Source of the DNA: an uncultured bacterium
GTDB lineage: Bacteria; Acidobacteriota; Thermoanaerobaculia; Multivoradales; JAHZIX01
NCBI GenBank assembly: GCA_965368975.1
Contig: CBDUPA010000003.1
Coordinates: forward strand, 288,001 to 352,000
DNA: 64,000 nucleotides
Reading direction: 5' to 3'
Below the pieces are notes generated by a model. It did not search any database. It was not told where the DNA came from and worked only from the letters and a program-made list of their open reading frames with translations. Position 1 is the stretch's first letter. Every line of letters starts with the position of its first letter. Shown here one piece after another: positions 13,206 through 36,536 of this stretch. The translations under genes and the position numbers were made by a program.

Positions 13206-13558
13206 GAATTCCGGCTCAGGATCAAGGCTTCCGCGGAATCGGAGTGCGGAAGCGAAATGGGCTGTTCAACTGGCTGGGGCGCGTGAACTCGAAGCGAGGC
13301 ATGAACTGGCTGGGATCGGTGCTGCAGTGTGGAGCGCCAAGGTACTGTCGAGCGCCAAGGGCTGGCTTGAACAGTTGATGTCATGCGCCGTGAAGGTGGC
13401 AGATGTCGACCCTGCGTGTCAAGAAGATGTCACGGTCCGCTGAAGACATGGGGCGGAAAAAACGCAGCACGATCAGCGCTTTGCACTGCTGGCGATGCTA
13501 AACTACTTTGGTGGGCCGCTCGACGCCTGCTCGCCATCAAACACCCCAGTTGACCACT

Positions 13559-14401
13559 ATGCAGTCCCCGAAACTCAGCATCGTCATTCCTCTATTCAAC
13601 GAGGCAGACAATCTGCCCGTGCTCGACGAGCAGGTTCGAACCGCTCTGCAGGCACAGGAAATGACGTACGAGGTTCTCTACGTCGACGACGGCAGCTCGG
13701 ATGCCAGTCTGGACGTGTTGCGCGAGCTGGCACAGCACGATGGCCGCCTACGCCTGCTGCGGAACTTCTGCAACAGCGGCCAGTCGGCGGCCCTGGCGGC
13801 AGGTTTCGAGGCCGCACGTGGAGAGATTCTCGTCACCCTTGATGCGGACCTACAGAACGACCCGGCGGACATTCCGACGTTGCTCAGCGAATTGCAGCGT
13901 ACCGAGGCTGATTTGGTCGCCGGAGTGCGCCAACGACGCCAGGACAACTGGGTTCGGCGCCTGTCGTCGCGGCTGGCCAATGGCGTACGCCGGCGTGTCT
14001 TGCAGGATGACGCCACCGACACGGGTTGCTCGCTGAAGGCGTTTCGCGCTGAGCTTGTGCGTCAGTTGCCGCGTTTCAACGGTATGCATCGTTTCCTGCC
14101 CGCCCTGATCAAGATGGCCGGAGGCCGTGTGGTGCAGGTCCCCGTCCATCATCGGCCGCGCCTGCACGGCGAGCCAAAGTACAACATCAGTAACCGACTG
14201 TGGCGCGGTCTGGCGGACCTCTTCGGGGTCTTCTGGTTACAGCGGCGTTGGATCGATCCGCGCCAGGTCGGGGAGGTCAGAGTTTGGCCAGCAACGCAAT
14301 CGACCCCCTCTGGCTCGTCATCGGCTTCGGCGGCCAAGCCCTCTTCGGAGCCCGCTTTCTCATCCAGTGGATCGTCTCCGAGCGACGCAAGGAAAGTGTA
14401 G
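13559..14401 (+). CDS. Glycosyltransferase family 2 (ArnC/DPM1-like polyprenyl-phosphate glycosyltransferase)
   Basis: LSIVIPLFNE, VDDGSSD, TLDADLQNDP, DTGCSLK, HRFLP. Confidence 0.9.
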   Translation: MQSPKLSIVIPLFNEADNLPVLDEQVRTALQAQEMTYEVLYVDDGSSDASLDVLRELAQHDGRLRLLRNFCNSGQSAALAAGFEAARGEILVTLDADLQNDPADIPTLLSELQRTEADLVAGVRQRRQDNWVRRLSSRLANGVRRRVLQDDATDTGCSLKAFRAELVRQLPRFNGMHRFLPALIKMAGGRVVQVPVHHRPRLHGEPKYNISNRLWRGLADLFGVFWLQRRWIDPRQVGEVRVWPATQSTPSGSSSASAAKPSSEPAFSSSGSSPSDARKV

Positions 14402-14616
14402 TTCCACGGGTTTTCTGGTTCTTCAGTCTCTTCGGTGGCATGACGCTGCTGGCGTACGCCATCCACAAGCGTGATCCGGTGTTCATCACGGGGCAGTCCC
14501 TGGGACTGGTGATCTACTGCCGCAACCTGTGGTTCATCTATGGCCCCAAGAAGGCCGCGGACGAAGCGCAGTCGCCGGCCGCGGAAGCGTCGCTTCCTGG
14601 GGAGCCATCGGCGTGA
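14284..14616 (+). CDS. Lipid A biosynthesis N-terminal (LAB_N)-domain small membrane protein
   Basis: TTG at 14284 after GGGAGG. Sequence WLVIGFGGQALFGARFLIQWIVSERRKESVVPRVFWFFSLFGG...DPVFITGQ...IYCRNL is typical of this family. Confidence 0.85.
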   Translation: MASNAIDPLWLVIGFGGQALFGARFLIQWIVSERRKESVVPRVFWFFSLFGGMTLLAYAIHKRDPVFITGQSLGLVIYCRNLWFIYGPKKAADEAQSPAAEASLPGEPSA

Positions 14617-16394
14617 GTTCGGCGTTGTCGTTGCCAGGGGCGTGGTTCCAGCGGTATCCAGCCCTGTGGGCCGGGCTGCTGGGGGTGATCCTGTTCCTGC
14701 CTGGGCTGGGCAATCACGATCTGTGGAACCCGGATGAACCGCGCTACGCGCAGGTAGGCGCCGAGATGCTGGCGTCCGGCGAGTTCCTGGTCCCGCACCT
14801 CAACGGTGAGCTGTACAACCAGAAGCCACCGTTGCACTTCTGGTCCATCGCGGTTTTCGGTGCACTTCGAGGTGGAGTCGACGAAGTGGCGGCACGCTTG
14901 CCATCGGCGCTGGCTGGTATCGGCACCCTGGTGCTAGTGTTCCTGCTGGGTCGCCGTCTGTTCGACGACCGCACGGCCTGGTTGGCGGTCCTCGTCTTCG
15001 GCAGCTCGGCACGGCTGCTGTGGCAGGGCCGGACAGGCCAGATCGACATGCAGCTGGTGTTCTGGGTGACGCTGGCGATGTACTTCTTCGTACGCGGTCA
15101 TCTGGCCCAGGACCCTCGCTGGTACCCATGGTTCTTCGTCGCCTGTGGTTTCGGCGGCCTGGCGAAGGGACCGGTTGGTCTGCTGCCGCCGCTCCTATCG
15201 ATCATCGCCTACCTCTTGGCGACCGGCCAGCGGCATGAGCTGAAGAGGCTGCGCATTGGCCGTGGCCTGTGGATCTGGGTCGGCATCATGTGCCTGTGGC
15301 TGTTGCCGGCAGCGCTGACGGCCGGCTTCGATTACCTGCGGTACCTGGTGGTCGATCAGAACCTCGGCCGCTACGCACGGCCGAGCGGCCATCATCGTCC
15401 CTTCTACTACTTCCTGACCGTCATCCCGGGTGACTTCTTCCCGTGGTCCTTCTTTTTGCCCACGGCGTTGATTCTCGGCTGGCGCCGCGTGCGCTCGACG
15501 GCAGAGCGTGCCGTGCAGGGCGAGTTCTGGCTCGGTGGTTCGGCGCGACGTGGCTATCTGCTGTGTCTGTGCTGGATGGTCGTGACGGTCGTCTTCTTCA
15601 GTCTCTCCCCCGGCAAGCGCACCGTCTACGTGTTGACCATGTATCCGGGGATGTCTCTGCTGGTGGCCGCAGTGCTGCAGCGCCTGACGATCCAGTGGAC
15701 GGAGCTGTCGAGGAGCGGGAAGGACGCTACAGGAAGGGGAGAAGCCTTTCCCCGGGCGTGGATGCTGGTGCCGCTCGGCCTGCTCGCGCTGTTGGCTGGC
15801 ACAGCTGCTGCGTTGCTGCCGCTGCGCGTCGGGGAGCGACCGGAGCTGGCGCTGATGACGTCCTGGACGTTGCCGTTGGTCACTGCTGCCCTTGCGTTGC
15901 TGGCACTCTCCGCCCTCGTCGCGCTGGTGTTCGTCTGGCGAGGGCGCGCAGTCTGGGCGCCGAAGGTGCTGGCGGTGACGATGATGGCCATGGTCATGAC
16001 CCTCTTCCTTGCCGTGCTGCCCCAGGTCGATGCCTTCAAGTCACCACGGAGGCTGACCGAGCGACTGATGGCCGATCGGTTGCCGGACGAACCCTTCGCG
16101 GTCTTTCCGCGCAAAGACGAGTCGGTGATCTTCTATGCTGGCAAGCCAGTGTTGGATGTTCATTTCGACGAATTGGACGCCTTTCTGTCCTCGGCCCCGC
16201 GTGTCTGGCTGCTTGCCGAACGTGACGCGCTGGAGCGCGTCGAGCCGGCTCGCGAGTTGATCGAGATCGATCGCGACGCGGATGTGGAGGATGGCTACCT
16301 TCTGCTCACCAATCCACCATGGCCTCGACGCCCCGCGCTAGCGCAGGAAGTGCACGGCGAGCCGGATGGACCAGACGAGGAGGCTGTGCGATGA
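14613..16394 (+). CDS. ArnT-like GT-C (family 39/83) membrane glycosyltransferase
   Basis: LWNPDEPRYA, KPPLHFW, ARLPSAL, LAKGP, HHRPFYYF, multiple TM helices. GTG start overlaps the upstream stop. Confidence 0.9.
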   Translation: MSSALSLPGAWFQRYPALWAGLLGVILFLPGLGNHDLWNPDEPRYAQVGAEMLASGEFLVPHLNGELYNQKPPLHFWSIAVFGALRGGVDEVAARLPSALAGIGTLVLVFLLGRRLFDDRTAWLAVLVFGSSARLLWQGRTGQIDMQLVFWVTLAMYFFVRGHLAQDPRWYPWFFVACGFGGLAKGPVGLLPPLLSIIAYLLATGQRHELKRLRIGRGLWIWVGIMCLWLLPAALTAGFDYLRYLVVDQNLGRYARPSGHHRPFYYFLTVIPGDFFPWSFFLPTALILGWRRVRSTAERAVQGEFWLGGSARRGYLLCLCWMVVTVVFFSLSPGKRTVYVLTMYPGMSLLVAAVLQRLTIQWTELSRSGKDATGRGEAFPRAWMLVPLGLLALLAGTAAALLPLRVGERPELALMTSWTLPLVTAALALLALSALVALVFVWRGRAVWAPKVLAVTMMAMVMTLFLAVLPQVDAFKSPRRLTERLMADRLPDEPFAVFPRKDESVIFYAGKPVLDVHFDELDAFLSSAPRVWLLAERDALERVEPARELIEIDRDADVEDGYLLLTNPPWPRRPALAQEVHGEPDGPDEEAVR

Positions 16395-17153: not shown

Positions 17154-17624
17154 TCAGTGCTGCTTGTGCTCGATGTCCAGGCGCTGGATCAGCACGCGTT
17201 CGTAGGTCGTGGCGATATCCAGGCGCAGGAGCAGGAGAGGGCGGAAGGTGCCGTTGCTGGGATCTTCGAGAATCAGCTGCTGCGCCAGTTCCTGTCGCCG
17301 ACGCAAGAAGCGCAGCTGTTCGGCGGCAGGTACTGACGGAAGATGGTCCCTGACGAAGTGAGAGTGTTCCTGCCGGATCCGAAGAGGGGCGCTATTCGGC
17401 GTGCTGCTGCGCGACAGCTCGAAGAAGCTGACCAAGGCGTCCAGCTCATGCTGCAAGAGCAACTGCACCACCTCCGTTGGCAGAGCTCGAAAGTGGGGTA
17501 GATCCTCGAGTTGGATCGCTTGTTCGAAGCTCGACAGCAATTGGCTCTGACGGTGCGTAAACCATTCGTGCGCTTGATGCCAAGCGTGATCGGGATCTTC
17601 GTTTTCGGAACTTACTGTCTGCAA
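17154..17624 (-). CDS. Hypothetical helical protein
   Basis: 156 aa ORF filling the gap between genes with plausible composition. No recognised motif. Confidence 0.55.
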   Translation of the reverse strand: MQTVSSENEDPDHAWHQAHEWFTHRQSQLLSSFEQAIQLEDLPHFRALPTEVVQLLLQHELDALVSFFELSRSSTPNSAPLRIRQEHSHFVRDHLPSVPAAEQLRFLRRRQELAQQLILEDPSNGTFRPLLLLRLDIATTYERVLIQRLDIEHKQH

Positions 17625-17796
17625 GATAGTTCCCTGCCAAGAGCGGTGGAGATCGTGGCGTGTCTACAGGGTCCACATAGGAATCATAGCAAAGAAAGGG
17701 GCGTGACCAGACGCGATGAGGACAGCCCCGAGGGCATGTGGATGCTATGCTAGTTTGGCAGTGGTTACGGAAGCTCGACGAAAGGAGAGAGCCACC

Positions 17797-18855
17797 ATGG
17801 CAAAGAAGACACGCAAGTTCGACCGTCGCGAGGCTCAGCCGCACAGAGCCGGGGCAGCCCAAGATGCCGAGCCTGCCCTATATGGAGTCCATCGAATGAT
17901 TCAGCCCAGTAGCGAAGCCACCGTTCGGTTCGCGGCCAGAAGCGCATCGCCCCACGGCTTGATCGTGGCCCTCGGCCTGGCACTGCTTCTGGCGTCCTCG
18001 CTGGTCGCCGCGGCGCAACGTGAAACTCGTGGTGAGCGCGAGCCAGCGCAGCAAACTCAGGAGCTCAAATTCGACGGCCAGCGCATGAGTGAGATCCGCA
18101 TCGCGGTGCAGGACGTGAATACCCGCGAGGATGTCGTCATTCTCCGCGATGGAGATGTCTTGGAGCTGAACGTCGGTGAGAAGGTGCGGCTGCGCCTGAT
18201 CGCTATTCCAGCGAGCCAGAATCATTCCCAGCGCTATCCCGCTGGCCGCTTTACGGGGCCGGAACGGAGCAACGCCGAGGTTGTCTTGAGTGATCCCAAG
18301 CCACACCTTGGCTCAGTGGTCCTCGAGGCGCGCCGCTTGGGTGATGGAGACTCGTTCTTCCGCTACCAGGTGACCGACAACGTCAACATGGACCGTCGCT
18401 TGTTCAAGGGCACCTTCGGGGTGCGCATCCGTCGCGGGGGTGCCGACCCTGGTGGTGGCGGCTACGACAGTGGCGAGCAGGGCTACGCCAGCAAGGTCGT
18501 CGATGCCCTGTACCGCGGCATCCTGATGCGGTCCCCGGATGCAGGGGCTCGGCCGCGTGTCGAGGACATCGCGAACAACGGTCATGCAGCCGCGGTCAAC
18601 CATGCGCGGGATATCGCCAAGAGCCGTGAGAGCACGATCGACATCTACGGTCGTGGTGTGACGCATGAAGAGCGCCTGCTATCGCTCTACGAGCACCTGA
18701 TGGGCTTGTCCGAGCGTGAGATCTCGGAAGTGGCTTGGCGCAACGACCTGCAGCGCCTGCGCAACGGGCAGCTGGAGATCGTGGTGATCAACATGTGCCA
18801 GTCGCGCGAGTTCGCGGATCGGTTCGGCCGTGGTCCGCGGCCACAGTATCGATAA
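17797..18855 (+). CDS. Hypothetical exported protein (beta-rich N-domain, DUF4214-like helical C-domain)
   Basis: AAAGGAG RBS before ATG 17797. Hydrophobic LIVALGLALLLASSLVAAA. C-terminal VDALYRGILMRSPD...LYEHLMG...SREF pattern resembles DUF4214 repeats. Confidence 0.7.
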   Translation: MAKKTRKFDRREAQPHRAGAAQDAEPALYGVHRMIQPSSEATVRFAARSASPHGLIVALGLALLLASSLVAAAQRETRGEREPAQQTQELKFDGQRMSEIRIAVQDVNTREDVVILRDGDVLELNVGEKVRLRLIAIPASQNHSQRYPAGRFTGPERSNAEVVLSDPKPHLGSVVLEARRLGDGDSFFRYQVTDNVNMDRRLFKGTFGVRIRRGGADPGGGGYDSGEQGYASKVVDALYRGILMRSPDAGARPRVEDIANNGHAAAVNHARDIAKSRESTIDIYGRGVTHEERLLSLYEHLMGLSEREISEVAWRNDLQRLRNGQLEIVVINMCQSREFADRFGRGPRPQYR

Positions 18856-18879
18856 CGGTCAAATCCGGAGTCTCTCTGG

Positions 18880-18983
18880 GTAGGGGCGGCCCCATGTGGC
18901 CGCCCTGCGGCGTCAGCCGCATCCGAATCCGGAGGAAGACCGCCGTTCCCCCGCCCAGGGCACCCACACGGGGGTGCCCCTAC
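18880..18983. repeat. Inverted REP pair (REPIN-like element, GTAG family)
   Basis: GTAGGGGCGGCCCCATGTGGCCGCCC at 18880-18905 and inverted GGGCACCCACACGGGGGTGCCCCTAC at 18958-18983. Each is a GTAG tetranucleotide plus an imperfect hairpin, located between convergent genes. Confidence 0.8.
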
Positions 18984-20167
18984 CCAGATTCGGATCCGTT
19001 GTTGGACTCCCGAGGCGGCAGAGGGCGTTCTTCCAGTTTCCACAGGAAGGCGCCCTCTTGCTGTTTGCGCACTTCCGGCGTCAGGCCCCGATAGCCGTAC
19101 GGGGGCCGGCGCAAGCGGCGGGTGAGAGCGAGCAGGAACCAGCCGAGCGGCAGGTAGAAGCCGATCAGGTCCCAGTCACGCAGCCAGCGGTGTAGCTTGT
19201 TCTTGGCCGGCTGGCGGCGACGGTCGCGGTAGTGGCGCACGAAAGTGACCGCCCAGGTCCACGGCATCGCCTTGTGCAGCAGGCCGCGACGTCGCGCGCG
19301 CGCCAGGCGCTGCTTGAGCAGGCGCCACTGGTAGGGGTGCTGACCGTAGCGCTCGACGTAGCGGTCCATCTCGGCCTGCATGCGCTGGCGCACTTGCTCG
19401 GCGACGGCCTGCAACTTGGCCCGGTCCGGGTTGTCCAGGTCGATACCGGCTTCTCGCACCATCGCCGCGACATCGAGTGGTTCGCCGATAACGAACACCA
19501 TGCGCGTGGGCAGCGCCAGGTACCAGGTCCAGGGCAGCAGCAGCGTGATCGGTGCTGCCGGCAGCGGTATGAAGGGCACGCCGAAGAGCTTTTGCACCAA
19601 CCAATCGACCGGCTTGAAGGTGTAGTTGAAGGGGATGATCCACTCGGCGTTGATGATGTAGGTTGGGTAGATGGGGGCCTGGTGGCGCGCTCCCAGCAGG
19701 ATAAAACTGGTGGAAAAGCGCTGCAGCTCGTAGCGGTGATTGAAGCCCTTGCCGATACCGGGTACGCCCTCCGGGTAGTACAGGATGCGCTCACCGCGCG
19801 CCAACAGCTGGTCGAAGTTGTCGAACGTCAGGTCGACACCGCCGCCGCGACGCCAGAAGTTGTCGATACCCCACGGGCGCATCCACCAGGTGGTCGTCAG
19901 CTCGCGCTCGAAGACCGAGCGGATCTTGGCCTCGCGCGTCCGCCCCTGGCGGCTCCATAGCAGGCCGTCGAGCACCATGGCGTCGTAGGGGAAGGCGTTG
20001 CCGCTGTGGTTGGGGGCCAGGATCAGCGGCCCCTTGTCTGGGAGACGGTGGGCGCCCAGCAGGCGAGGGCGGAAGTAGGCATCGACGAAGAGCGGAGCGA
20101 AGACCTCGTCGACCAGGTCGCGCATGTAGGCGGCGTCGAAGGGTTCGTAGTAGCGCGGCTCGCTCAT
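18980..20167 (-). CDS. PlsC/DGAT2-like (lyso)phospholipid acyltransferase family protein
   Basis: Start MSEPRYYEPF overlapping the upstream stop. Motifs LILAPNHSGNAFPYD and YYPEGVPG. Confidence 0.85.
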   Translation of the reverse strand: MSEPRYYEPFDAAYMRDLVDEVFAPLFVDAYFRPRLLGAHRLPDKGPLILAPNHSGNAFPYDAMVLDGLLWSRQGRTREAKIRSVFERELTTTWWMRPWGIDNFWRRGGGVDLTFDNFDQLLARGERILYYPEGVPGIGKGFNHRYELQRFSTSFILLGARHQAPIYPTYIINAEWIIPFNYTFKPVDWLVQKLFGVPFIPLPAAPITLLLPWTWYLALPTRMVFVIGEPLDVAAMVREAGIDLDNPDRAKLQAVAEQVRQRMQAEMDRYVERYGQHPYQWRLLKQRLARARRRGLLHKAMPWTWAVTFVRHYRDRRRQPAKNKLHRWLRDWDLIGFYLPLGWFLLALTRRLRRPPYGYRGLTPEVRKQQEGAFLWKLEERPLPPRESNNGSESG

Positions 20168-21873
20168 TCTCGCCCTCGCCGTAGGGGGATCAGAAACCCG
20201 AGCAAGAAGAGCACGATGGACACTGGCAGTGCCCACGGGGCGTCCGACGTCAACAGCACGGCACCGGCGAGCATGCAGAAACCGCCGAAGAGCGTGCCGC
20301 GCAAGCCGGCTAGCGGGTTCTCCTGGGGCTGTTGCGTCATTTGTTCGAGCACGCGCAGGCTCTCGGTGACCAGCATCGGAGACTTGACCACTGCGTCGAC
20401 CAGTTCGGGCGCGCCGCGCAGGCTCTGGCGCAGCAGGCGTATGGGCCCGAATTGATGGAGGAAGATCTTGTTGATGTGCTTCTGGCTCAGCTCGACGATG
20501 TCGAGGTCCGGTTGCAGGATGTAGCCGACGCCCTCGAAGGTCACCAGCGCCTTGACCATCAACACCATCTCGACGGGGAAGTAGACGCGGAACTGACCAC
20601 CCAGATTGACCGACTGCAGGATCAGCTGCGCCAGCGAGAAGCCTTCGAAGTTGGAGCTGCGGTGCCAGCGCTGTGCGATCTCGGTCAGCGCGCGGCGGAA
20701 GCCGACCGGATCCGAGCCGTAGCCGGTCGTGGCGACGGCGGCCAGGTAGCGCGACGCGTTGTCGGCGTCGCCCATGACCAGGCAGTAGTAGTAGTACATC
20801 AGCGTGCGCCGTAGGTCTTCGTCGAAGCGGCCGACCATGCCGAGGTCGATGAAGCCGGCCCGCGGCCCCTTGCCGTCGCGCCCGGGCAGGATGATCAAGT
20901 TGCCTGGGTGCAGGTCGGCGTGGAAGAAGCCGTCCTGGTACAACATGCGGATGATCGCCTCGGCCCCCAACTCGACGATGCGGTCGCGGTCTTCCTCGGG
21001 CAGGGCTCGTGCCTCCGGCGAGTCCGGCTTGATGCCGTCGAAGAACTCCATGCACATGACGTTCATCCCCGAGTACTCGCGGTAGATCTTGGGGAAGACG
21101 ATGTCGGGGTCGTCGACGAAGTTGGCCGCGAAGGTCTCGGCGTTGTCCGCCTCGCGGCGCAGGTCGATCTCCTTAGAGGTGTAGTCGACGAACTCGCGGA
21201 TGACCTGTCGCGGTCGGTAGGCCGGAATCAGCAGTTGTAGCAGACCGCCGAAGAGCTTGAGCAGACGCGCGTCGCGGGTCAGCAACTGGCGGATGCCGGG
21301 CTTGACCACCTTGAGGATCACCGAGTCGCCATGCACGGTAGTGGCCCGGTGGGTCTGGGCGATCGACGCCGAGCCGATCGGTCTCGGGTCGATCCAGCTG
21401 TACGCTTCGTCCAGCGGGCAGCGCAGGTCCGCGGCCACCAGCTCCACGTAGCGGTCAAAGGGCACTACGGGTAGGCGGTCGAGCAGGTTCTTCAGCTCGT
21501 CGGTGATCGAGTGCGGCAGAATGTCTTGGCGCAGCGATAGCACCTGCCCGAGCTTGATATACGTTGGACCGAGGATTTCGAGCCGGCGGCGCAGTTGCAC
21601 CGGGAACGGCTGGCGCCGCAGGTCGCCGCGCACGAACGGCACAGCGAAGAAAGCCGCGACCCGCAGCAGCCACCAGAGCAGGCCGCTGCGCAGCGCCTTC
21701 GGCCGATCGCGCACCGCCGCGACCATGCCGCCGAGGCCGAGGCCGAGCAGGTGGCGTTGCGTGGTGAGGAAGCGTCGGAGTAGCCCGGGTGGCGGCCGCT
21801 CGATCAGCAGCTCGAAGCCCTCGAGGGGATCTTCCGGCGCTTGCTCTTCGCTTGCGGAGGCTCCAGCCGTCAT
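20164..21873 (-). CDS. AarF/UbiB/ABC1 family atypical kinase
   Basis: LGPTYIKLGQ (KxGQ), GSASIAQTH, FFHADLHPGN, IDLGM, two C-terminal TM helices. GAGGAG RBS upstream of ATG 21873. Confidence 0.92.
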   Translation of the reverse strand: MTAGASASEEQAPEDPLEGFELLIERPPPGLLRRFLTTQRHLLGLGLGGMVAAVRDRPKALRSGLLWWLLRVAAFFAVPFVRGDLRRQPFPVQLRRRLEILGPTYIKLGQVLSLRQDILPHSITDELKNLLDRLPVVPFDRYVELVAADLRCPLDEAYSWIDPRPIGSASIAQTHRATTVHGDSVILKVVKPGIRQLLTRDARLLKLFGGLLQLLIPAYRPRQVIREFVDYTSKEIDLRREADNAETFAANFVDDPDIVFPKIYREYSGMNVMCMEFFDGIKPDSPEARALPEEDRDRIVELGAEAIIRMLYQDGFFHADLHPGNLIILPGRDGKGPRAGFIDLGMVGRFDEDLRRTLMYYYYCLVMGDADNASRYLAAVATTGYGSDPVGFRRALTEIAQRWHRSSNFEGFSLAQLILQSVNLGGQFRVYFPVEMVLMVKALVTFEGVGYILQPDLDIVELSQKHINKIFLHQFGPIRLLRQSLRGAPELVDAVVKSPMLVTESLRVLEQMTQQPQENPLAGLRGTLFGGFCMLAGAVLLTSDAPWALPVSIVLFLLGFLIPLRRGRE

Positions 21874-21892
21874 GGGAGGCTGGCTCCGCTCC

Positions 21893-23449
21893 TCAACGAT
21901 TCCGCCCGTACTGTTCGTGGCTCGACACCCAGTCGAGCGCCGAGATCGCCGAGCCGAGGGAGATCTCGCCCGCCAGCGCGACGCCAGCGACGATCTCGGC
22001 GAACTTGAGCACCTTGCCCTTGCCGTAGCAGTCCAGCACCTCCAGGCACTCGCGCTGCGTCGGCAGGCTGGTGCCGCCGCCATAGGTGGCGACGATCAGC
22101 GACGGAATGGTCAGCGAAATGTAGAAGTCGCCGTTCTTGTCGACCTCGGTGTAGAGGACTCCGGCCGACGACTCCGAGACGTTGGCGACATCCTGGCCGG
22201 TGGCGATGAACATGGCGGTGATGGCGTTGGGCGAGTGGCAGCCGTTGTTGTTGGCACCGGAGAGGAAGGCGCCGATGTTGGCGACGTTCGAGTGGTAGTG
22301 CAGCGTTTCCGGCTCGACGCGCATGTGCTGGATCAGCACGTCACGCGGGATCGTACACTCCGCCGTCACGCGCTTGCCGCGCGTGCGCATGACGTTGATC
22401 TGCGACGCCTTCTTGTCGGTAGCGAAGTTCGATTCCAGGTAGAAGTGGCGCACGTTGTCGAGCTGGTCGAGGATCCAGCTACAGGCGGCGAAGGTGGCGC
22501 GTCCAACCATGTTCTGTCCCGCCGCGTCCCCCGTCGAGTAGTTGAAGCGCAGGTAGGCGAACTTGTTCGAGAGGTAGGTGTCGATGTAGACCAGCTTGGC
22601 GACGCTCGAGGTTTCCTCCGCGGCCTGCCGAATGTGGTCCATGTTCTCTTGGATCCAGTCGCGGAAATCGCGTGCCTGGCGCGCCGAGTCGAAGACGAAC
22701 ACCGGTGCACGCTGCATGACGTCGCCGACCACCGTGCAGGTGACGCCGCCCGACAAATTGAGCACCTTGATGCCGCGGTTGTAGGACGCCACGAGCGTGC
22801 CTTCGGCGGTGGCCAAGGGGATCAGGAATTCGCCGATGGCGTGCTCGCCATTGACCTGCAACGGACCAGCGAAGCCGAGCGGTACTTGTGCTACACCGGT
22901 GAAGTTCTCGATGTTGCCCTGCGTTACCGCCGGGTCGAACGAATACTTGTTGACGTGTTGCAGCTGGACGCCGGTCTGCTGTTCGATGAACGCCTGCCGC
23001 GCGGCGACAATCTCGGGAGTGTAGTTGTCTTCCTTGTCGAGCGGCACGATGGTGCGCTCGACCTGTTCCTCGATCGCGTCCTCGACCTCGAAGTCGAGGC
23101 TACCAAAGGGCTTGGCCTCGAAAGCGATGTTGATCCTGTGCTTGCCCTCGGGCAGAGCCGCGCCGGTATTGCACAGCACCAAGAGCGCCTTGCGCAGCGG
23201 GAAGTCGATCGGCGACGTCTCACTGATCTCCGTCGCCGCGACTCTGTGGTCCCCGAGGTCGAGCTGGATGTGCGCCACGTCGATCTCTTGGCCGTTGATG
23301 CGAATGCTCTTGACGCCAGTCAGGGTGGCGTCGTTGAGGCGGTTCTTGATTCCGAAACGCACGCCCTTGTCTGTATTGAGCAAGCTGCTGTAGGTGTACA
23401 GCTGGCGCAGAACCATGGACGGAATCTTGAACAGGTTGGGAAATTTCAT
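21893..23449 (-). CDS. Hydroxymethylglutaryl-CoA reductase (class I-like) with ~130-aa N-terminal extra domain
   Basis: NIENFTG, PLATAEGTLVAS, TGDAAGQNM, ESNFATDKK, ATGQDVA, ATYGGGT, LAGEIS and terminal His (SSHEQYGR). Confidence 0.9.
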   Translation of the reverse strand: MKFPNLFKIPSMVLRQLYTYSSLLNTDKGVRFGIKNRLNDATLTGVKSIRINGQEIDVAHIQLDLGDHRVAATEISETSPIDFPLRKALLVLCNTGAALPEGKHRINIAFEAKPFGSLDFEVEDAIEEQVERTIVPLDKEDNYTPEIVAARQAFIEQQTGVQLQHVNKYSFDPAVTQGNIENFTGVAQVPLGFAGPLQVNGEHAIGEFLIPLATAEGTLVASYNRGIKVLNLSGGVTCTVVGDVMQRAPVFVFDSARQARDFRDWIQENMDHIRQAAEETSSVAKLVYIDTYLSNKFAYLRFNYSTGDAAGQNMVGRATFAACSWILDQLDNVRHFYLESNFATDKKASQINVMRTRGKRVTAECTIPRDVLIQHMRVEPETLHYHSNVANIGAFLSGANNNGCHSPNAITAMFIATGQDVANVSESSAGVLYTEVDKNGDFYISLTIPSLIVATYGGGTSLPTQRECLEVLDCYGKGKVLKFAEIVAGVALAGEISLGSAISALDWVSSHEQYGRNR

Positions 23450-23621
23450 CGCTCAGGCACCTCGTGGTGGTTCGTACGGGAGTTAGGACGGTTCCTAGCT
23501 TATCCGCTGAAGGAGAGCTTGAACAGCGGTCGTTGCCGGCCCCACATTGCGACCTGCGGATTGCCCGTGGGCGACAAAAGATGAGAGACTTCGTTGCTGT
23601 TTTGGCAACACGAACGCCCCA

Positions 23622-24140
23622 ATGATCGAACTCACGACCCACAGCCCTGAAGACACGCGAGCCCTTGGCCGTCGCCTCGGGGCCCAGCTACCCGCCGGTA
23701 CCGTCGTTGGTCTCGACGGCGACCTGGGAGCCGGCAAGACCTGGCTGTGCAAAGGCCTGGTCGAAGGCATCGGCACCTTCGATGCCGCTTCGGTCAAGAG
23801 CCCGGCCTACAACCTGGTGCACGAGTACCCGGTGTACAGGCCTGACGGCGCAACGCAGCTCGTCATCCACATCGACTTCTACCGCCTGGAAGAGCTCTCC
23901 GACACCGACGCCCTGCTCTTCGCCGAGTACTTCGAGCGCCGCGACACGATCGTCTTGGTGGAGTGGGCTCGCCGCTTTCTGGCTGAACTGGTACCGGGTT
24001 TTCTTGCCGTGGAGTTGCAAACGGTGCCCGGCGCCGACGAACAACGCCAGATCCGCCTCGACACCGTGGGCGACGGCTATGACGACCTCTTGGCGACCCT
24101 GACGGCCACCGTCTCCGCCCATGTCCGGAACCTTGCATGA
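23622..24140 (+). CDS. tsaE: t6A biosynthesis ATPase TsaE (divergent)
   Basis: GDLGAGKT Walker A, VKSPAYNLVHEY, HIDFYRL, LVEWA. Confidence 0.88.
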   Translation: MIELTTHSPEDTRALGRRLGAQLPAGTVVGLDGDLGAGKTWLCKGLVEGIGTFDAASVKSPAYNLVHEYPVYRPDGATQLVIHIDFYRLEELSDTDALLFAEYFERRDTIVLVEWARRFLAELVPGFLAVELQTVPGADEQRQIRLDTVGDGYDDLLATLTATVSAHVRNLA

Positions 24141-31735: not shown

Positions 31736-32740
31736 CTAGCGCAGCGAGGCCACCACTCGATCGACCACCTGCTCCATGGTCGATCGGGGCGCATAGGCGA
31801 AGTCGCGGCGAGCGGCCGAGATGTCGTAGAAATGATCACGCGCCAAGACGCCGGCCAGGAAGCGGGTCAGGCGTGGTTCGCCGGGCAGGCGCAGGGTCCG
31901 GTGGAAGGTCTCGAGCACGCCGGCGAGTCGGCGCGCCGTGGTCTCGGAGATGCGGCGGCGTACCGGGGGGATGTTGAGGCGGTTGAGCAGTCCGTTGATC
32001 CACGGCCAGAGCACGACGGGCTCACCCTGGCTCAGGAAGTAGGTCTTGCCGCCCACGGGTGCGCCGTCTGCGCGCTGCAGCACGTCGGCGGCCTGCAGGT
32101 GCGCACGGGCCGCGTCCTCGACAAAGGTCATGTCGACACGGTTTCGCCCCTCGCCGACCTGGATGAGCTTGCCGGCACGGGCACGTGCCACCAGGCGCGG
32201 CACCAGGTGCGGATCCCCGGGGCCCAGAATCAAGTGCGGTCGCAGTGCGACGGTGCGCAGCGTGTCGCTATGTCCCTGCAACACCAGGCGTTCGGCGATC
32301 GCCTTGGTGGCTGAGTAGCGATTCTCGTGCCGCTCGGGGTAGGGCAGCGATTCGTCGTGGCCTTGGTGGTCGCTGCCGTCGAAGACCACGCTCGGTGAGC
32401 TGGTGAAGACCAGGTGGCGAATACCATGGGTGCGGCAGGCGGTGATGACGTTCTGCGTGCCGACCACGTTGGGCTGATAGAAGCTGTCCCAAGAGCCCCA
32501 GACGCCGGCCTTGGCGGCCGTGTGGAAGACCGCGTCGAGGCTCTTGCCGTCGAGAGGCTTGCAGGCGTCGAGGACCGTCCGGGTGTCGGCCAGGTCGCCG
32601 CGCACCAAGCTGGCGCCGGCTTGGGTGAGTTCCGGATAGTCGCCGCGCGCGAAGATGGTGACCTCGTCGCCGCGGTCGAGGAGCTGGCGTACGATGTGGC
32701 TTCCCAGGAAGCCGCCACCGCCGGTGACCAGGGCTCTCAT
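31736..32740 (-). CDS. oleD: OleD-like 2-alkyl-3-oxoalkanoate reductase (extended SDR)
   Basis: TGGGGFLG, HTAAKAGVWG, FTSSPSVVF, YSATK, LRPHLI. Follows the oleB/oleC-like genes. Confidence 0.85.
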   Translation of the reverse strand: MRALVTGGGGFLGSHIVRQLLDRGDEVTIFARGDYPELTQAGASLVRGDLADTRTVLDACKPLDGKSLDAVFHTAAKAGVWGSWDSFYQPNVVGTQNVITACRTHGIRHLVFTSSPSVVFDGSDHQGHDESLPYPERHENRYSATKAIAERLVLQGHSDTLRTVALRPHLILGPGDPHLVPRLVARARAGKLIQVGEGRNRVDMTFVEDAARAHLQAADVLQRADGAPVGGKTYFLSQGEPVVLWPWINGLLNRLNIPPVRRRISETTARRLAGVLETFHRTLRLPGEPRLTRFLAGVLARDHFYDISAARRDFAYAPRSTMEQVVDRVVASLR

Positions 32741-34443
32741 GTCGCGGGTCCTCCCGGGGTCGTTCGACGCACCCGTGGTGCTGCCCAGGCCGCCAGCGCC
32801 TCGCGCACGATCTTGGCATTGTGCCGTACATCGACGGGAAACTCGGGGTGGAACAGGAAGTCGTGAATCTTGGCGGCTCGAGGGTGGTCATCGCCGAGGG
32901 CCAGGAGTTCGCGGCGTAGGCGCTCCGCCTCGGCACCGCTGGGTGTGCGCCCGTCGAGCAGCTCGACGACCAGCACCGGTCGTTGCCGACCCCGTGGTCC
33001 GGCACCGACCAAGGCGGTACGTCGGACCGCGGGATGCTGGTCGAAGATCGCTTCCAGGGCCGATAGCAGGAGGGCGCCATCTGCCGTCTCGACGCGGTGC
33101 GACTTGCGGCCACAGACCCACAGCCTGCCGTGTGTGTCGACGTAGCCGAGGTCCCCCATACGATGCCACAGGCTACCGTCGGTGGCACGGATCTTGGCGA
33201 GCGCCGTCTGCTGCGGACGATGGAGATACTCGCGCGTGACGATCGAGCCGCGGACCACGATTTCGCCCAGTTCCCCCGCGGGCAGCTCCTCGACTTCGTT
33301 CCAGGTCTCGAGGACGTCGTCGCTGAGGCGGATGATGCGGATGTCGACGTCTCCTAGCGGCCGTCCGACGCAGACCCCACGCCCGGCTTCTGTGGCGCCG
33401 CGTACGTCTGGATCGAGCACCGTAGCGTGATCGACCAGTGTCAGCGGCAGAGCCTCGGTGGCGCCGAAGGGCGTCGCGACCCGACAATCAACCGGCACGA
33501 TACGGCGTAGATCCTCGACCAAGCGTGGGTCGACCGAAGCACCGAAGAGGAAGAGGTGCTGGAGGTAGGACAGGTGGATGTCGCGCGCCAGGCAGTGGTC
33601 CGCCAGTTTGCGCCACACCACCGGTGAGCCGAGGCTGAGCGTCACACCGTGGGTCTCGATGGCCTCCACCAGGCGTGCCGGGTCGACCTTCGCCGGCTGC
33701 CGTGGGTCCATGTCCGGGATCACCGTCGAGACGCCGAGCGCCGGATTGAACAGCGCGAAGATGGGCAGGATGGCGAGGTGGATGTCGCCCTCGCGGATCC
33801 CCATGTCGCCGTGCATCGCCGCCAGCTGAGCTCGAAAGATACCCTGCAGGTAGACGACACCCTTCGGCATGCCGGTCGAACCGGAGGTGAAGGCGACCGC
33901 CGCTTCATCGTCGCTGTCGGTGTCGGCGATGGAGAAGGGGCCCGCCGAGACACCGCTGGCGAGCAACTCCGTCAGCGTGACCCCGCCCCCGAAGAGCCGG
34001 CTGAGCCCCATACCGGCGTGCGTAGCGCGTCGCCGGACCGAGCGAAACGCGGCAGGGAACAGCCGGCTCAGCACGTGCGCCAGTGGAATGCCGATCATCG
34101 ACGTGGGCTCCGTCTCGCGTACGCACTGCAAGAACGCCTTGCGACCCATGCCGGGATCGATCAGCACCGGCACCGCGCCGGCCTTGAGGAGCGCGAAGAT
34201 CACCGCGATCAGCTCGATCCCGGGTCGGAGCATGACCAAGACGCGCTGCCCGCGGTCGAAACCGCGGTGCACCAGGCCGTGGGCATAGGCGTCGGAGAGC
34301 TGGTGCAGCTGCGCGAAGCTCAGCTGTACGAAGCGCGGCCGGTCGTCGCGCGTGCGGCCAGCGGGGAAGAGAACCGCTGGACGGTGGGGCGCCCGCTCGG
34401 CCTGGCGGGCGAAGTCGCGGGCGATGTTGTAGCGGTCGGACAT
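32737..34443 (-). CDS. oleC: OleC-like AMP-dependent ligase (beta-lactone synthetase)
   Basis: LIDPGMG, FTSGSTGMPKGV, FGATEALP, WHRMGDLG, FPVDVRHNAKI. Confidence 0.87.
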   Translation of the reverse strand: MSDRYNIARDFARQAERAPHRPAVLFPAGRTRDDRPRFVQLSFAQLHQLSDAYAHGLVHRGFDRGQRVLVMLRPGIELIAVIFALLKAGAVPVLIDPGMGRKAFLQCVRETEPTSMIGIPLAHVLSRLFPAAFRSVRRRATHAGMGLSRLFGGGVTLTELLASGVSAGPFSIADTDSDDEAAVAFTSGSTGMPKGVVYLQGIFRAQLAAMHGDMGIREGDIHLAILPIFALFNPALGVSTVIPDMDPRQPAKVDPARLVEAIETHGVTLSLGSPVVWRKLADHCLARDIHLSYLQHLFLFGASVDPRLVEDLRRIVPVDCRVATPFGATEALPLTLVDHATVLDPDVRGATEAGRGVCVGRPLGDVDIRIIRLSDDVLETWNEVEELPAGELGEIVVRGSIVTREYLHRPQQTALAKIRATDGSLWHRMGDLGYVDTHGRLWVCGRKSHRVETADGALLLSALEAIFDQHPAVRRTALVGAGPRGRQRPVLVVELLDGRTPSGAEAERLRRELLALGDDHPRAAKIHDFLFHPEFPVDVRHNAKIVREALAAWAAPRVRRTTPGGPAT

Positions 34444-34471
34444 CGTTACTTCAAGAGGCTGTTGCAGAAGG

Positions 34472-35383
34472 CTACTTCAGGAACGGTACCAGCGAGGGCA
34501 CGATCCGTTCGTGGGCGTCTTCGAAGATGTAGTGCCCGGCGTCGGTGAAGACTTCGACCTCCGCGTGCGGGAAGCGCTGCTGCCATTCGGGTAGGAAGTG
34601 CCGGGTGGTGAAGCAGAAGTCCTGATCTCCCCAGTAGATCCGCATCGGCCGCTGCGCCAGCTGGCCCAGGCCGGCGTCGATGGCGTCGAGGGTACGGCGG
34701 GTTGGATGATGCGGCTCGAGCGGGATGTCGCGCACGAAACGATGGACGGCGACGCGGTCCTGCCAGCTGTCATACGGGGCGAGGTACCCGGCACGCACGT
34801 CCTCGGGCAGGTGCTGCGACGTGGCGAAGAGCTGGGCGGCGCGGGCGAAGCCATTGAGCCCACGCACCAGGAAGGCACCGACGGCAGGGTAGCGGCAGAC
34901 ACGGATACGCCAGGGGCAGAAGTCGACGTGGAAGGCGGCGGTGTTGCCGACGACGAGACGGTCGACGCGCTCGGGGTGGCGCGTGGCCCAGCCCATTCCG
35001 ATGGCGCCGCCCCAGTCGTGGACGATCAAGGACGCCCGCTCGACCTCGAGGTGGTCGAGCAGCGCTTCGAGACGCTGGATGTGCAGTTCCAGCGTGTACG
35101 GCGTGCCCTCGGCAGCCGCTGGTGGCTTGTCCGACAGGCCGCAACCCAGGTGGTCCGGAACGATCACGCGGTGATCGGGGGCCAGCGCTGGGATCAGGTG
35201 ACGGAAGTAGAACGACCAGGTCGGGTTGCCGTGCACCAGGACAACGGGCGGCGCTTGGGGGTCGCCTTCGTCGAGATAGTGCAGGCGCCACGGCGGGTGC
35301 GGCGATGCGCCGGGCTCGTCGAGCTGGAAGAAGTGACTCTGAAACGGATAGTGGACACGCCACGGTGCGTTGGGGGAATTCAT
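34472..35383 (-). CDS. oleB: OleB-like haloalkane-dehalogenase-fold hydrolase (beta-lactone decarboxylase)
   Basis: HGNPTWSFY, PDHLGCGLSDKP, VHDWGG (Asp nucleophile), NTAAF, DAGHY. Confidence 0.85.
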   Translation of the reverse strand: MNSPNAPWRVHYPFQSHFFQLDEPGASPHPPWRLHYLDEGDPQAPPVVLVHGNPTWSFYFRHLIPALAPDHRVIVPDHLGCGLSDKPPAAAEGTPYTLELHIQRLEALLDHLEVERASLIVHDWGGAIGMGWATRHPERVDRLVVGNTAAFHVDFCPWRIRVCRYPAVGAFLVRGLNGFARAAQLFATSQHLPEDVRAGYLAPYDSWQDRVAVHRFVRDIPLEPHHPTRRTLDAIDAGLGQLAQRPMRIYWGDQDFCFTTRHFLPEWQQRFPHAEVEVFTDAGHYIFEDAHERIVPSLVPFLK

Positions 35384-35441: not shown

Positions 35442-36536
35442 TCACGGTGTCACCACCTCGGTGGCCGGTCGGTTCATGCTCCAGTTGAACCAGAAGGTGT
35501 CGACGCCTGGCAAGCGCTGCACGGTCGATGCGCCCTCGCCGACGAAGCTTGCGGAGGCGGGGTCGAGTCGGGAACCCGACGCGCGGTGCACCCAGGTGCC
35601 GCTGTGCGCTTCGAAGGCGTCGCCTTCGGCCGGCTTCGGTGCCACGAAGGCGGCTGAGCTGCGGTAGATCGCGGCGCCTGCGGGGCGCTGGAGCAGGATC
35701 TGGTGGTCTCCCAGCTGCAACAATACCCCCGATCCGGTGAAGTGCTCGGAGGCTACAGCGTACGGAGTGCCCTCGAGTTCGAAGGCGAAGATGTGGGCTT
35801 TGGCTGACAGGCGAGTGTCCGCCAGCTGGCCATCTCGGAACACTCGATCGGAGGACAGGTAGTTGTCATAGGGATTGCTGTCCGCGTGCTCCTGCCCGCC
35901 GACGGAGAGCACGAGCGTGTGGGGGTAGCGACCCTTCCAGTCGGCCCACTGTGCCTTCTCGCCAATCGTGAGCTCGTCGAGCAGAGTGCCATCGAGATCG
36001 CCGGCGATGGCTTCCCCGTTGAGGATCGGCCAGTAGCTGTCGGTCTCGCGGTCCTGCATCACCAGCGTGGCGTGGATGAGACCGCCGGAGGGTTCGAAGT
36101 GAAGAGTCTTGCCCGCGTAGTTGCGGCCGTACACGACGGCCGTGTTGGCGAGCGGTCACCAGACTGCCGCGATCGGCAGCTCTCCCAGGCGATCGTTGAC
36201 TACTTCGTGCTGGTTCAGCAGGTTCAACGAGTAGGCGCGCGCCTCTCCGTCGAGCGCGATACCGAGGACCCAGGCATCCTCCGGCACGTCGGCTTCGTCA
36301 GCCGTCACGAAGTCGGGAGCGTGGATCGCCGGAATGCCGCCACGCGGTAGCAGCTGCTGGAAGCTGTCCGGCAGATCCGGATGCACTTCGGCACCGCGCA
36401 TTCCTGGCTCAGGAGGCTTGTCACGCACACCTTCGGTCGCGGCGCTCAGAGCACTCGGGCCGAGTGTCAGCAGCAGAGCTGGGAGCAGGGATCGCAGGAC
36501 GTGGCCGAGCGACACTGGGGTGTTTCGTCTGGGCAT
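35442..36536 (-). CDS. DUF3179-family exported protein, probable selenoprotein (in-frame TGA at 36156-36158)
   Basis: The 126 aa and 230 aa ORFs are in the same frame and joined by TGG TGA CCG CTC GCC (W-U-P-L-A). Family motifs GIPAI, ARAYSL..L..HEVVND, LVMQDRETDSYW, W..WK..YP.T and FWFNW span both halves. Confidence 0.85.
36124..36142 (-). promoter_or_regulatory. Candidate bacterial SECIS hairpin
   Basis: mRNA CGGCCGU-CGUGU-ACGGCCG: perfect 7-bp stem and 5-nt loop with G at position 2. The loop begins 20 nt after the UGA. Confidence 0.65.

Follow-up and report, generated by a model that had tools for sequence, protein, structure and literature searches.

The DNA analyzed here, a 64-kb stretch of contig CBDUPA010000003.1 from an uncultured acidobacterium (hereafter the window), has a GC content of 62-70%, and its proteins resemble, judging by source names, those of Acidobacteriota of the class Thermoanaerobaculia. 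Direct reading of its minus strand between 23449 and 18980 gives three co-oriented open reading frames (ORFs) in the order P0001, P0002, P0003. P0001 (23449..21893, minus strand, 518 aa; PF00368 and PF25653) has the fold of class I hydroxymethylglutaryl-CoA (HMG-CoA) reductase (HMGR) and is read below as fcrA, the gene of an FcrA-type fatty acyl-CoA reductase; P0002 (21873..20164, minus strand, 569 aa; PF03109) is a UbiB/ABC1-family atypical kinase-like protein, and P0003 (20167..18980, minus strand, 395 aa; PF01553) belongs to the PlsC/GPAT superfamily of acyltransferases. A spacer of 19 nt (21892-21874, minus strand) separates the TGA of P0001 (21895-21893) from the ATG of P0002 (21873), and the ATG of P0003 (20167) and the stop codon of P0002, a TGA, are merged in an ATGA (20164-20167, minus strand). 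The products of these genes lie well outside what chance would produce. P0001 itself consists of an N-terminal beta domain, the long-chain alkyl carrier or Lad domain (residues 13-126; 23072..23413, minus strand; assigned from PF25653 and an AlphaFold2 model), and a catalytic domain (residues 148-516; 21902..23008, minus strand; assigned from PF00368, the conserved catalytic residues and the best solved relative, 6hr7), which has DAAGQN instead of DAMGxN at residues 308-313 (22528-22511, minus strand). An earlier sequence-only reading of the locus had pointed to the gene order with its gap and overlap, to the altered motif and to the lack of mevalonate genes nearby, and all three observations were borne out, the last by a Pfam scan of the 46 further ORFs of the 64 kb, in which HMG-CoA synthase, GHMP kinase, diphosphomevalonate decarboxylase and IDI all went unmatched. 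Genes of the methylerythritol phosphate (MEP) pathway are also missing from these 46 ORFs, so the window alone is silent on the isoprenoid route of the organism.

The name FcrA was recently given to a fatty acyl-CoA reductase whose ancestor was a class I HMGR (Grossi et al., ISME J 2025; PMC11948995). The enzyme of Ca. Promineifilum breve (Pb-FcrA) is reported to reduce acyl-CoA of at least 14 carbons to the alcohol with NADPH, to leave HMG-CoA unreduced and to be insensitive to simvastatin (PMC11948995). According to the same source, FcrA keeps the catalytic Glu559, Lys691, Asp767 and His866 of HMGR, and in its pocket Ser684 is replaced by Glu (Glu360 in Natronomonas pharaonis), Lys735 (printed as Lys795) by a small residue and Leu862 by Trp; in many but not all FcrA proteins a flexible linker attaches an N-terminal alkyl-carrier domain, Lad, of about 10 strands, and genomes whose sole HMGR homolog is of the FcrA type are described as lacking the mevalonate (MVA) pathway. 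The co-occurrence of FcrA with WS/DGAT (wax ester synthase/diacylglycerol acyltransferase) is reported to be less strict than that of AcrB with WS/DGAT, and a PlsC-like gene is mentioned in several FcrA-bearing taxa, beside fcrA in Coxiella burnetii, with ether-lipid synthesis as the suggested function (PMC11948995). The words UbiB, ABC1, kinase and phosphotransferase do not occur in the accessible main text of this article, and literature searches found no description of a link between FcrA or HMGR and UbiB; those on orphan bacterial HMGR brought up nothing of use.

P0001 matches FcrA on every sequence feature tested. PF00368 (HMG-CoA_red) is matched over residues 148-516 at E 1.7e-126 and PF25653 (HMG-CoA_red_N) over residues 13-126 at E 9.6e-40, the latter along profile positions 1-114 of 115, and the best solved relative, 6hr7, is an archaeal HMGR (E 4.6e-87). 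The equivalents of Glu559, Lys691, Asp767 and His866 are E216, K346, D420 and H511, invariant in the alignments, in which N408 and R247 (the position of human Arg590) are conserved as well. At the Ser684 position stands E339, seven residues N-terminal of K346 and acidic (E or D) in each of the 13 Lad-bearing locus rows that the alignment displayed; the Lys735 position, a Lys in the aligned 6hr7, is A390, and the Leu862 position is W507, four residues before the catalytic H511. The resulting signature is ERAQEKANDWH, against a canonical ERMMSKKNDLH that was seen in three rows only (P0244, P0252 and P0270) of an alignment of 133 relatives. DAAGQN also occurs in the Lad-less relatives P0131 and P0137 and, as judged from these sequences, marks the FcrA-like clade. 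In the AlphaFold2 model, residues 18-126 form nine strands of at least three residues and one two-residue strand, at block pLDDT (predicted local distance difference test) values of 81-94, and are followed at residues 127-144 by a linker without regular secondary structure, which fits the 10-strand domain and unstructured linker described for FcrA (PMC11948995). A FastTree phylogeny of 85 rows, in which the tool flagged long outgroup branches, places the Lad-bearing proteins including P0001 in one clade (support 99) and splits off the three canonical rows (support 100). The tree took in L038, not the assayed Pb-FcrA itself; this Promineifilaceae homolog, of the same family as the host of the assayed enzyme, is 66% identical to P0001.

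These features make it very probable that P0001 is an FcrA-type fatty acyl-CoA reductase, which would work outside the mevalonate pathway and probably turn acyl-CoA into an alcohol that ends up in a lipid, as the sequence-only reading had proposed. An ordinary class I HMGR, delivering mevalonate to an MVA pathway encoded elsewhere or to a mevalonate ester, would account for the full-length PF00368 match, for the conserved tetrad and R247, and for the name hydroxymethylglutaryl-CoA reductase that databases give to the relatives; it is nevertheless a very improbable identity, as P0001 reaches 352 bits against the NCBIfam HMGR equivalog TIGR00533, under the cut-off of 441.8, has all three HMG-binding residues changed (Glu, Ala and Trp for Ser684, Lys735 and Leu862) together with DAMGxN, and has no MVA gene beside it, either in the window ORFs or among the neighbor clusters recurring in at least three of the 80 related loci introduced below. 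The characterized member of the family is likewise reported without HMG-CoA activity (PMC11948995), and the option of mevalonate as the product has therefore to be given up. The broader idea that the HMGR fold was repurposed to provide an acyl-CoA-derived alcohol for esterification is most likely correct; its novelty, and with it the description of the pathway as unknown, does not hold, since the step from HMGR to fatty alcohol was published in 2025 (PMC11948995). What is new at this locus is a conserved FcrA-UbiB pair and a PlsC-fold acyltransferase in the slot of WS/DGAT.

P0002 is clearly a member of the ABC1 superfamily (PF03109, E 9e-59, 199 bits against a cut-off of 22.9), and it scores below both UbiB equivalog cut-offs (TIGR01982, 308.1 versus 487.55; NF003404, 238.6 versus 667). 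It retains KxGQ and all catalytic positions of the kinase fold (Lys, Glu, Asp, Asn and DxG), with K107, G109 and Q110 of the motif, K188, E241, D320, N325 and D343 invariant in 18 sequences, and hydrophobic segments lie near both ends of the protein (residues 63-81 and 538-567). The conservation of its position was surveyed in the loci of the best 80 relatives of P0001 obtained from a scan of genome contigs, which are Lad-bearing, 63-78% identical to P0001 and spread over Acidobacteriota, Chloroflexota, Gemmatimonadota, Bacteroidota, Rhodothermota, Balneolota, KSB1 and other groups. A close P0002 homolog lies directly downstream of fcrA in 27 of these loci: in 24 of the 69 with at least 1.8 kb of downstream sequence, and in L034, L037 and L057, where the flank is shorter and the start of the UbiB gene is visible. 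Three more loci (L035, L048 and L075) have such a homolog within 8 kb. The adjacent arrangement was found in 13 of 16 Thermoanaerobaculia-type loci, 9 of 20 other acidobacterial loci, 3 of 5 from Gemmatimonadota and 2 of 11 with other or doubtful labels, and in none of the 17 Chloroflexota loci or the 11 from Bacteroidota, Rhodothermota and Balneolota. P0002 and the linked homologs form a subgroup of their own, at 48-64% identity to P0002, compared with 24-31% for the non-linked UbiB proteins of L039, L047 and L050. On the FcrA tree the UbiB label changes 7 times, compared with a mean of 21.8 after shuffling (0 of 500 shuffles as low, with the relatedness of the rows ignored), and the pair stays together while its flanking genes vary between loci; this clustering and the changing flanks indicate that the FcrA-UbiB pair is old and well kept. 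A dedicated FcrA-linked role of this UbiB subgroup is, in our view, somewhat more likely than not.

P0003 is less easily placed. It matches PF01553 (Acyltransferase) at E 6.6e-09 (36.1 bits where 23 is the cut-off), no NCBIfam family including the PlsC models, and no sequence relative in the PDB at E ≤1. Its predicted structure (pLDDT 76; predicted template-modeling score, pTM, 0.79) finds PlsC 5kym as the best fold match in Foldseek (E 5.3e-4, TM 0.54 on the target), followed by PatA and GPAT folds, so that the model supports a PlsC/GPAT fold and nothing narrower. The DGAT2 label attached to it in the sequence-only reading could not be retained: PF03982 (DAGAT, DGAT2) gave no match at E ≤0.01 and was seen only in a look-alike cluster at rank 7 of an ESM Atlas search with P0003. 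The WS/DGAT domains PF03007 and PF06974, with their HHxxxDG active site, are not matched in Pfam or NCBIfam either. Fourteen sequences share two invariant motifs, NHSGxxxPxD and PEGVPGIGKGF, and the canonical HX4D is absent, the residues N53-H54-S55-G56...P60...D62 placing the Asp at +8, not at +5. The family has a conserved basic and hydrophobic C-terminal extension and is common in Thermoanaerobaculia and Gemmatimonadota (722 matches), where its members bear the generic lysophosphatidic acid acyltransferase name 1-acyl-sn-glycerol-3-phosphate acyltransferase.

The related loci suggest where the alcohol goes. Among the best 80, the recurrent neighbors of fcrA are a patatin-like lipase (16 loci), PhaR (13), WS/DGAT (11), phasin (10), a glucose-methanol-choline (GMC) oxidoreductase (9) and an acyl-CoA (AMP-binding) ligase (8); ArsA/BagAB-like ATPases, aldehyde dehydrogenases, enoyl-CoA hydratase and SCP2 occur in fewer. 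WS/DGAT of the sister loci scores above its family cut-off (TIGR02946, 369 bits against 310). These neighbors point to neutral-lipid storage, and the earlier proposal of an alcohol bound for a lipid gains support from their abundance. The position of P0003 homologs within such clusters is informative: in L056 the order FcrA, UbiB, acyltransferase is followed within two genes by patatin and phasin and then by an ArsA-like gene; L075 has UbiB and acyltransferase, then patatin and phasin in the opposite orientation; L048 has FcrA, acyl-CoA ligase, UbiB, acyltransferase. In L045 and L070, FcrA and UbiB are followed by WS/DGAT, by patatin and phasin in the opposite orientation, by PhaR, and by ArsA-like genes, and in L041, L045 and L070 WS/DGAT fills the slot that the P0003 homolog takes in L056 and L075. 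No locus holds both enzymes, WS/DGAT being present in 11 and the acyltransferase in 5; this exclusivity is counted per locus. For the six acyltransferase-linked FcrA rows the tree requires six changes, so that the association was not inherited as a single block and arose or persisted in separate lineages. P0003, which appears to displace the unrelated WS/DGAT, is thus a candidate alcohol acyltransferase by gene position; the equivalence of the two is positional only, and an ester-forming role for P0003 falls slightly short of an even chance.

Several features of the sampled loci deserve mention in their own right. ArsA/Get3-fold ATPases recur in the FcrA lipid-granule clusters (L064, 17824-18765; L070, 16878-18035; L056, 11340-12254; L048, 7952-9118), those of L064 and L070 matching the Mycobacterium tuberculosis BagA/BagB at 94 and 234 bits, under the cut-off, and those of L056 and L048 being known from Pfam ArsA_ATPase matches only. 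An SCP2 lipid-transfer gene follows WS/DGAT in L013, L014 and L018, and an enoyl-CoA hydratase gene lies directly upstream of the FcrA-UbiB pair in L017, L020, L021, L022 and L028, all of one subclade. Two FcrA paralogs no more than about 3 kb apart are present in L035 (9941-11536 and 13407-14432) and L060 (6993-8585 and 10001-11542). L020 and L021 have near-identical FcrA (branch lengths 0.005) and the same neighborhoods under the labels Thermoanaerobaculia and Chondromyces, probably a binning or labeling conflict, and a conflict of this sort may also lie behind the labels Planctomycetota (L010), Thalassovita (L023) and Gammaproteobacteria (L033).

The PlsC/GPAT fold of P0003 and the database name of its relatives invite a different destination, in which the FcrA alcohol would enter alkyl-glycerol lipids and the PlsC-like enzyme would make acyl-dihydroxyacetone phosphate or acylate 1-alkyl-glycerol-3-phosphate, as in ElbD-type proposals. 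Ether-linked lipids are well known from Acidobacteria. The suggestion of Grossi et al., drawn from the looser co-occurrence with WS/DGAT and from PlsC-like neighbors including that of Coxiella burnetii, goes in the same direction (PMC11948995). At the loci considered here such a route is nonetheless unlikely: an AGPS-type FAD oxidase (PF01565/PF02913) was found neither in the 46 window ORFs nor in 44 ORFs from the acyltransferase loci L012, L048, L056 and L075; the neighbors of the acyltransferase in these four loci are patatin and phasin, with PhaR in L012, genes of lipid granules and not of membrane lipids; the acyltransferase takes the slot of WS/DGAT; and P0003 lacks both a PlsC match in NCBIfam and HX4D. 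A search of P0003 against proteins of 693-2000 aa gave no match at E ≤0.001 and hence no ElbD-like fused relative, which is weak evidence in the same sense.

Kinase-like domains also accompany FcrA-like proteins in another form. Among 58 long FcrA/HMGR-like representatives, 35 (16 of 28 and 19 of 30) carry a C-terminal APH/EcKL domain resembling small-molecule kinases (PF01636/PF02958), for example P0168, P0169, P0171, P0173 and P0175 besides 30 others, and in the ESM Atlas these fusion clusters are bacterial, most often from Pseudomonadota and Actinomycetota. The accessible main text of PMC11948995 does not mention this fusion, and the other literature searches did not bring it up either. The fused kinases were considered as UbiB orthologs and rejected, hhalign giving a probability of only 24% over 95 columns against the UbiB alignment; the parallel is one of function class, drawn by analogy, and not of descent. 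It still raises the possibility that UbiB, like the fused domain, phosphorylates the fatty alcohol or a derived hydroxy-lipid on the way to an alkyl-phosphate-derived lipid. The frequency of the fusions, the adjacency of UbiB in 27 of 80 loci and the intact kinase-fold residues of P0002 would agree with this, as would the fact that the acceptors of PlsC-type enzymes are usually phosphorylated. We consider it more doubtful still than the ether-lipid route: the two kinase types are only remotely alike, the recognized activities of UbiB/COQ8 proteins are ATPase and weak protein kinase, not lipid kinase, an alkyl phosphate leaves no hydroxyl for the acyltransferase, and we know of no alkyl-phosphate lipid of such a kind. 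Within the family at large, AtABC1K6 has been reported as a protein kinase (PMC8956952).

Other fusions of the HMGR fold were seen among the longer proteins. An N-terminal PilZ (c-di-GMP-binding) domain precedes the fold in P0146, P0153, P0159, P0160, P0205, P0209, P0218 and P0222, whose pocket signature is neither canonical nor FcrA-like, with for instance Ile or Leu at the Arg590 position; these proteins are an uncharacterized branch of the fold. An acyl-CoA ligase (AMP-binding) domain, with or without acyl carrier protein (ACP), is fused to an FcrA-like domain in P0151, P0163, P0191, P0196, P0202, P0208, P0216 and P0263, the P0151 cluster including Enterobacter kobei proteins named 'AMP-binding protein', and further FcrA-like fusions involve ACBP (P0226), an AfsA hotdog domain (P0166) and DUF3419 (P0242 and P0265).

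We therefore favor, at a probability of roughly 55%, an operon that makes a fatty-alcohol-derived neutral lipid of the wax-ester type in a Thermoanaerobaculia-like acidobacterium. FcrA, by close homology to the characterized enzyme, would use NADPH to reduce long-chain acyl-CoA (about C14 and longer) to the fatty alcohol in a four-electron step, with its N-terminal Lad beta domain holding the alkyl chain; P0003, to judge from the place of its gene, would esterify the alcohol with acyl-CoA to a wax-ester-type storage lipid and so replace WS/DGAT; and the membrane-anchored UbiB protein might use ATP to pass the substrate or product, both hydrophobic, among membrane, enzyme and lipid body, or might instead regulate the process by phosphorylation. 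Such a role would parallel, by analogy, that of the ABC1 kinases of plastoglobules and cyanobacterial lipid droplets.

A number of points weigh against this reading of a wax-ester-type operon. The substrate and product of P0001 rest on homology to one characterized enzyme. The lipid-granule context is borrowed from relatives, since the Pfam scan found no patatin, phasin, PhaR or WS/DGAT in the window ORFs, and these relatives are the best 80 of at least 594, a sample biased toward the kin of the window. UbiB linkage is concentrated in one FcrA subclade, where it accounts for 24 of 32 rows, and the shuffle test took no account of such kinship; the linkage could be one old arrangement kept by descent, and the pair may count as few independent events. 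To our knowledge, lipid kinase activity is not established for UbiB proteins. The acyltransferase, with its missing HX4D, has an acceptor that is not readable from fold or sequence, and its exclusivity with WS/DGAT has the per-locus scope given above. A homolog of P0003 is near fcrA in 5 of the 80 loci and the exact order FcrA, UbiB, acyltransferase recurs in 1 (L056), so that of the three-gene linkage the FcrA-UbiB part is conserved and the acyltransferase part is not.

A more far-reaching possibility, which we regard as unlikely, is that a kinase-fold partner is obligatory in FcrA systems, as a separate, membrane-anchored UbiB protein in Acidobacteriota and Gemmatimonadota and as the fused APH/EcKL-like domain in many FcrA-like proteins of proteobacteria and actinobacteria, that this partner has been overlooked, and that the P0003 family is a new class of alcohol acyltransferase replacing WS/DGAT. 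The part played by such a partner would then be either phosphorylation of the fatty alcohol or its ATP-dependent transfer from the Lad domain, and if this were true a UbiB-family protein would gain a defined non-quinone lipid substrate. To the published repurposing of HMGR the window adds only an acidobacterial member of FcrA, and it corrects the routine annotation of its relatives as 'hydroxymethylglutaryl-CoA reductase'. For the UbiB/ABC1 proteins, an ancient and widespread group whose biochemistry is unclear, the conserved pairing with an enzyme whose substrate and product are known is a simple and testable case of how such a protein acts on a lipid. If P0003 forms esters, surveys that rely on WS/DGAT alone would understate the number of soil and sediment bacteria able to store wax-type lipids.

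The surroundings of the operon in the window are of mixed content. Upstream lies a divergent tsaE-tsaB-tsaD group, and the two ORFs downstream, 17154-17624 (minus strand) and 17716-18855 (plus strand), have no family match. Scans of 18600-23800 found no E. coli-type promoter-like site and 3 terminator-like sites, with 2.7 to be expected by shuffling, and the hairpins 3' of the acyltransferase stop (18925-18985) are no better than shuffles (z -0.51). Three adjacent genes at 31736-35383 (minus strand), encoding OleD-like (2-alkyl-3-oxoalkanoate reductase, 370 bits against a cut-off of 580), OleC-like (olefin beta-lactone synthetase, 569 against 900) and OleB-like alpha/beta hydrolase proteins, resemble a cluster for long-chain olefins and lie 8 kb from the fcrA operon; the OleC-like gene also exceeds the cut-off for the fatty acid CoA ligase PRK09274, and the Pfam scan of the window found no OleA-type thiolase. 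A DUF3179 gene at 35442-36536 (minus strand) is interrupted by a single in-frame TGA at 36156-36158, with a hairpin 16 nt downstream (7-bp stem, 5-nt loop, z -1.86, equaled in 5 of 200 shuffles); the TGA could be read through as selenocysteine, or it could stem from a nonsense mutation or from an error in sequencing, and the family presumably has Cys at this position. At 13508-16394 (plus strand), ArnC-like family 2 (GT2) and ArnT-like (PMT family) membrane glycosyltransferases, both under their equivalog cut-offs, are followed by a histidine-phosphatase-family gene, a set that may serve the modification of lipid A or of polyprenyl-linked sugars.

Among known systems, the closest is FcrA itself, as described for Pb-FcrA and Natronomonas pharaonis FcrA (PMC11948995), with which P0001, known here from its sequence, shares the Lad domain joined to the HMGR fold, the catalytic tetrad, the Glu/small/Trp pocket and the DAAGQN-type motif; MVA genes are missing nearby, WS/DGAT adjoins the gene in some relatives, and the difference lies in the operon, which the window gene heads together with a UbiB/ABC1 protein and a PlsC-fold acyltransferase. 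With canonical class I HMGR (human HMGCR; 6hr7) P0001 has the fold and the catalytic Glu, Lys, Asp and His in common, and it departs from it in the replaced Ser684, Lys735, Leu862 and DAMGxN, the extra Lad domain and the sub-cut-off score. The wax-ester pathway of Marinobacter and Acinetobacter (FarA or AcrB with WS/DGAT) follows the same course from acyl-CoA through fatty alcohol to ester, and sister loci of the window hold WS/DGAT itself with patatin, phasin and PhaR, whereas the window reductase has the HMGR fold and not that of the short-chain dehydrogenases/reductases (SDR), the ester enzyme would be of PlsC fold, and UbiB is added. ElbD of Myxococcus (FadD-ACP-FAR-PlsC-like) likewise combines an alcohol-forming reductase with a PlsC-like acyltransferase (PMC11948995), and L048 adds an acyl-CoA ligase to the likeness, but the window proteins are separate, their reductase has another fold, and neither AGPS nor elb-type genes turned up among the ORFs scanned in the window and the four acyltransferase loci. 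P0002 resembles UbiB/COQ8 of ubiquinone synthesis in its ABC1 domain, KxGQ motif, catalytic residues and hydrophobic anchor segments; it differs in scoring under the equivalog cut-offs, in forming its own subgroup and in being linked to a fatty alcohol enzyme instead of quinone genes. Finally, cyanobacterial lipid droplets have been reported to contain three ABC1Ks and the DGAT2-like acyltransferase slr2103 (PMC12223511). These droplets and plastoglobules are described as dominated by prenyl lipids, which sets them apart from the proposed product, and P0003 and slr2103 can be likened by description only; the likeness to the window, known from its genes alone, would be that of a UbiB/ABC1 protein and an acyltransferase at a neutral-lipid body, and the ABC1 kinases on cyanobacterial lipid droplets provide a precedent for a UbiB-type protein at such a site.

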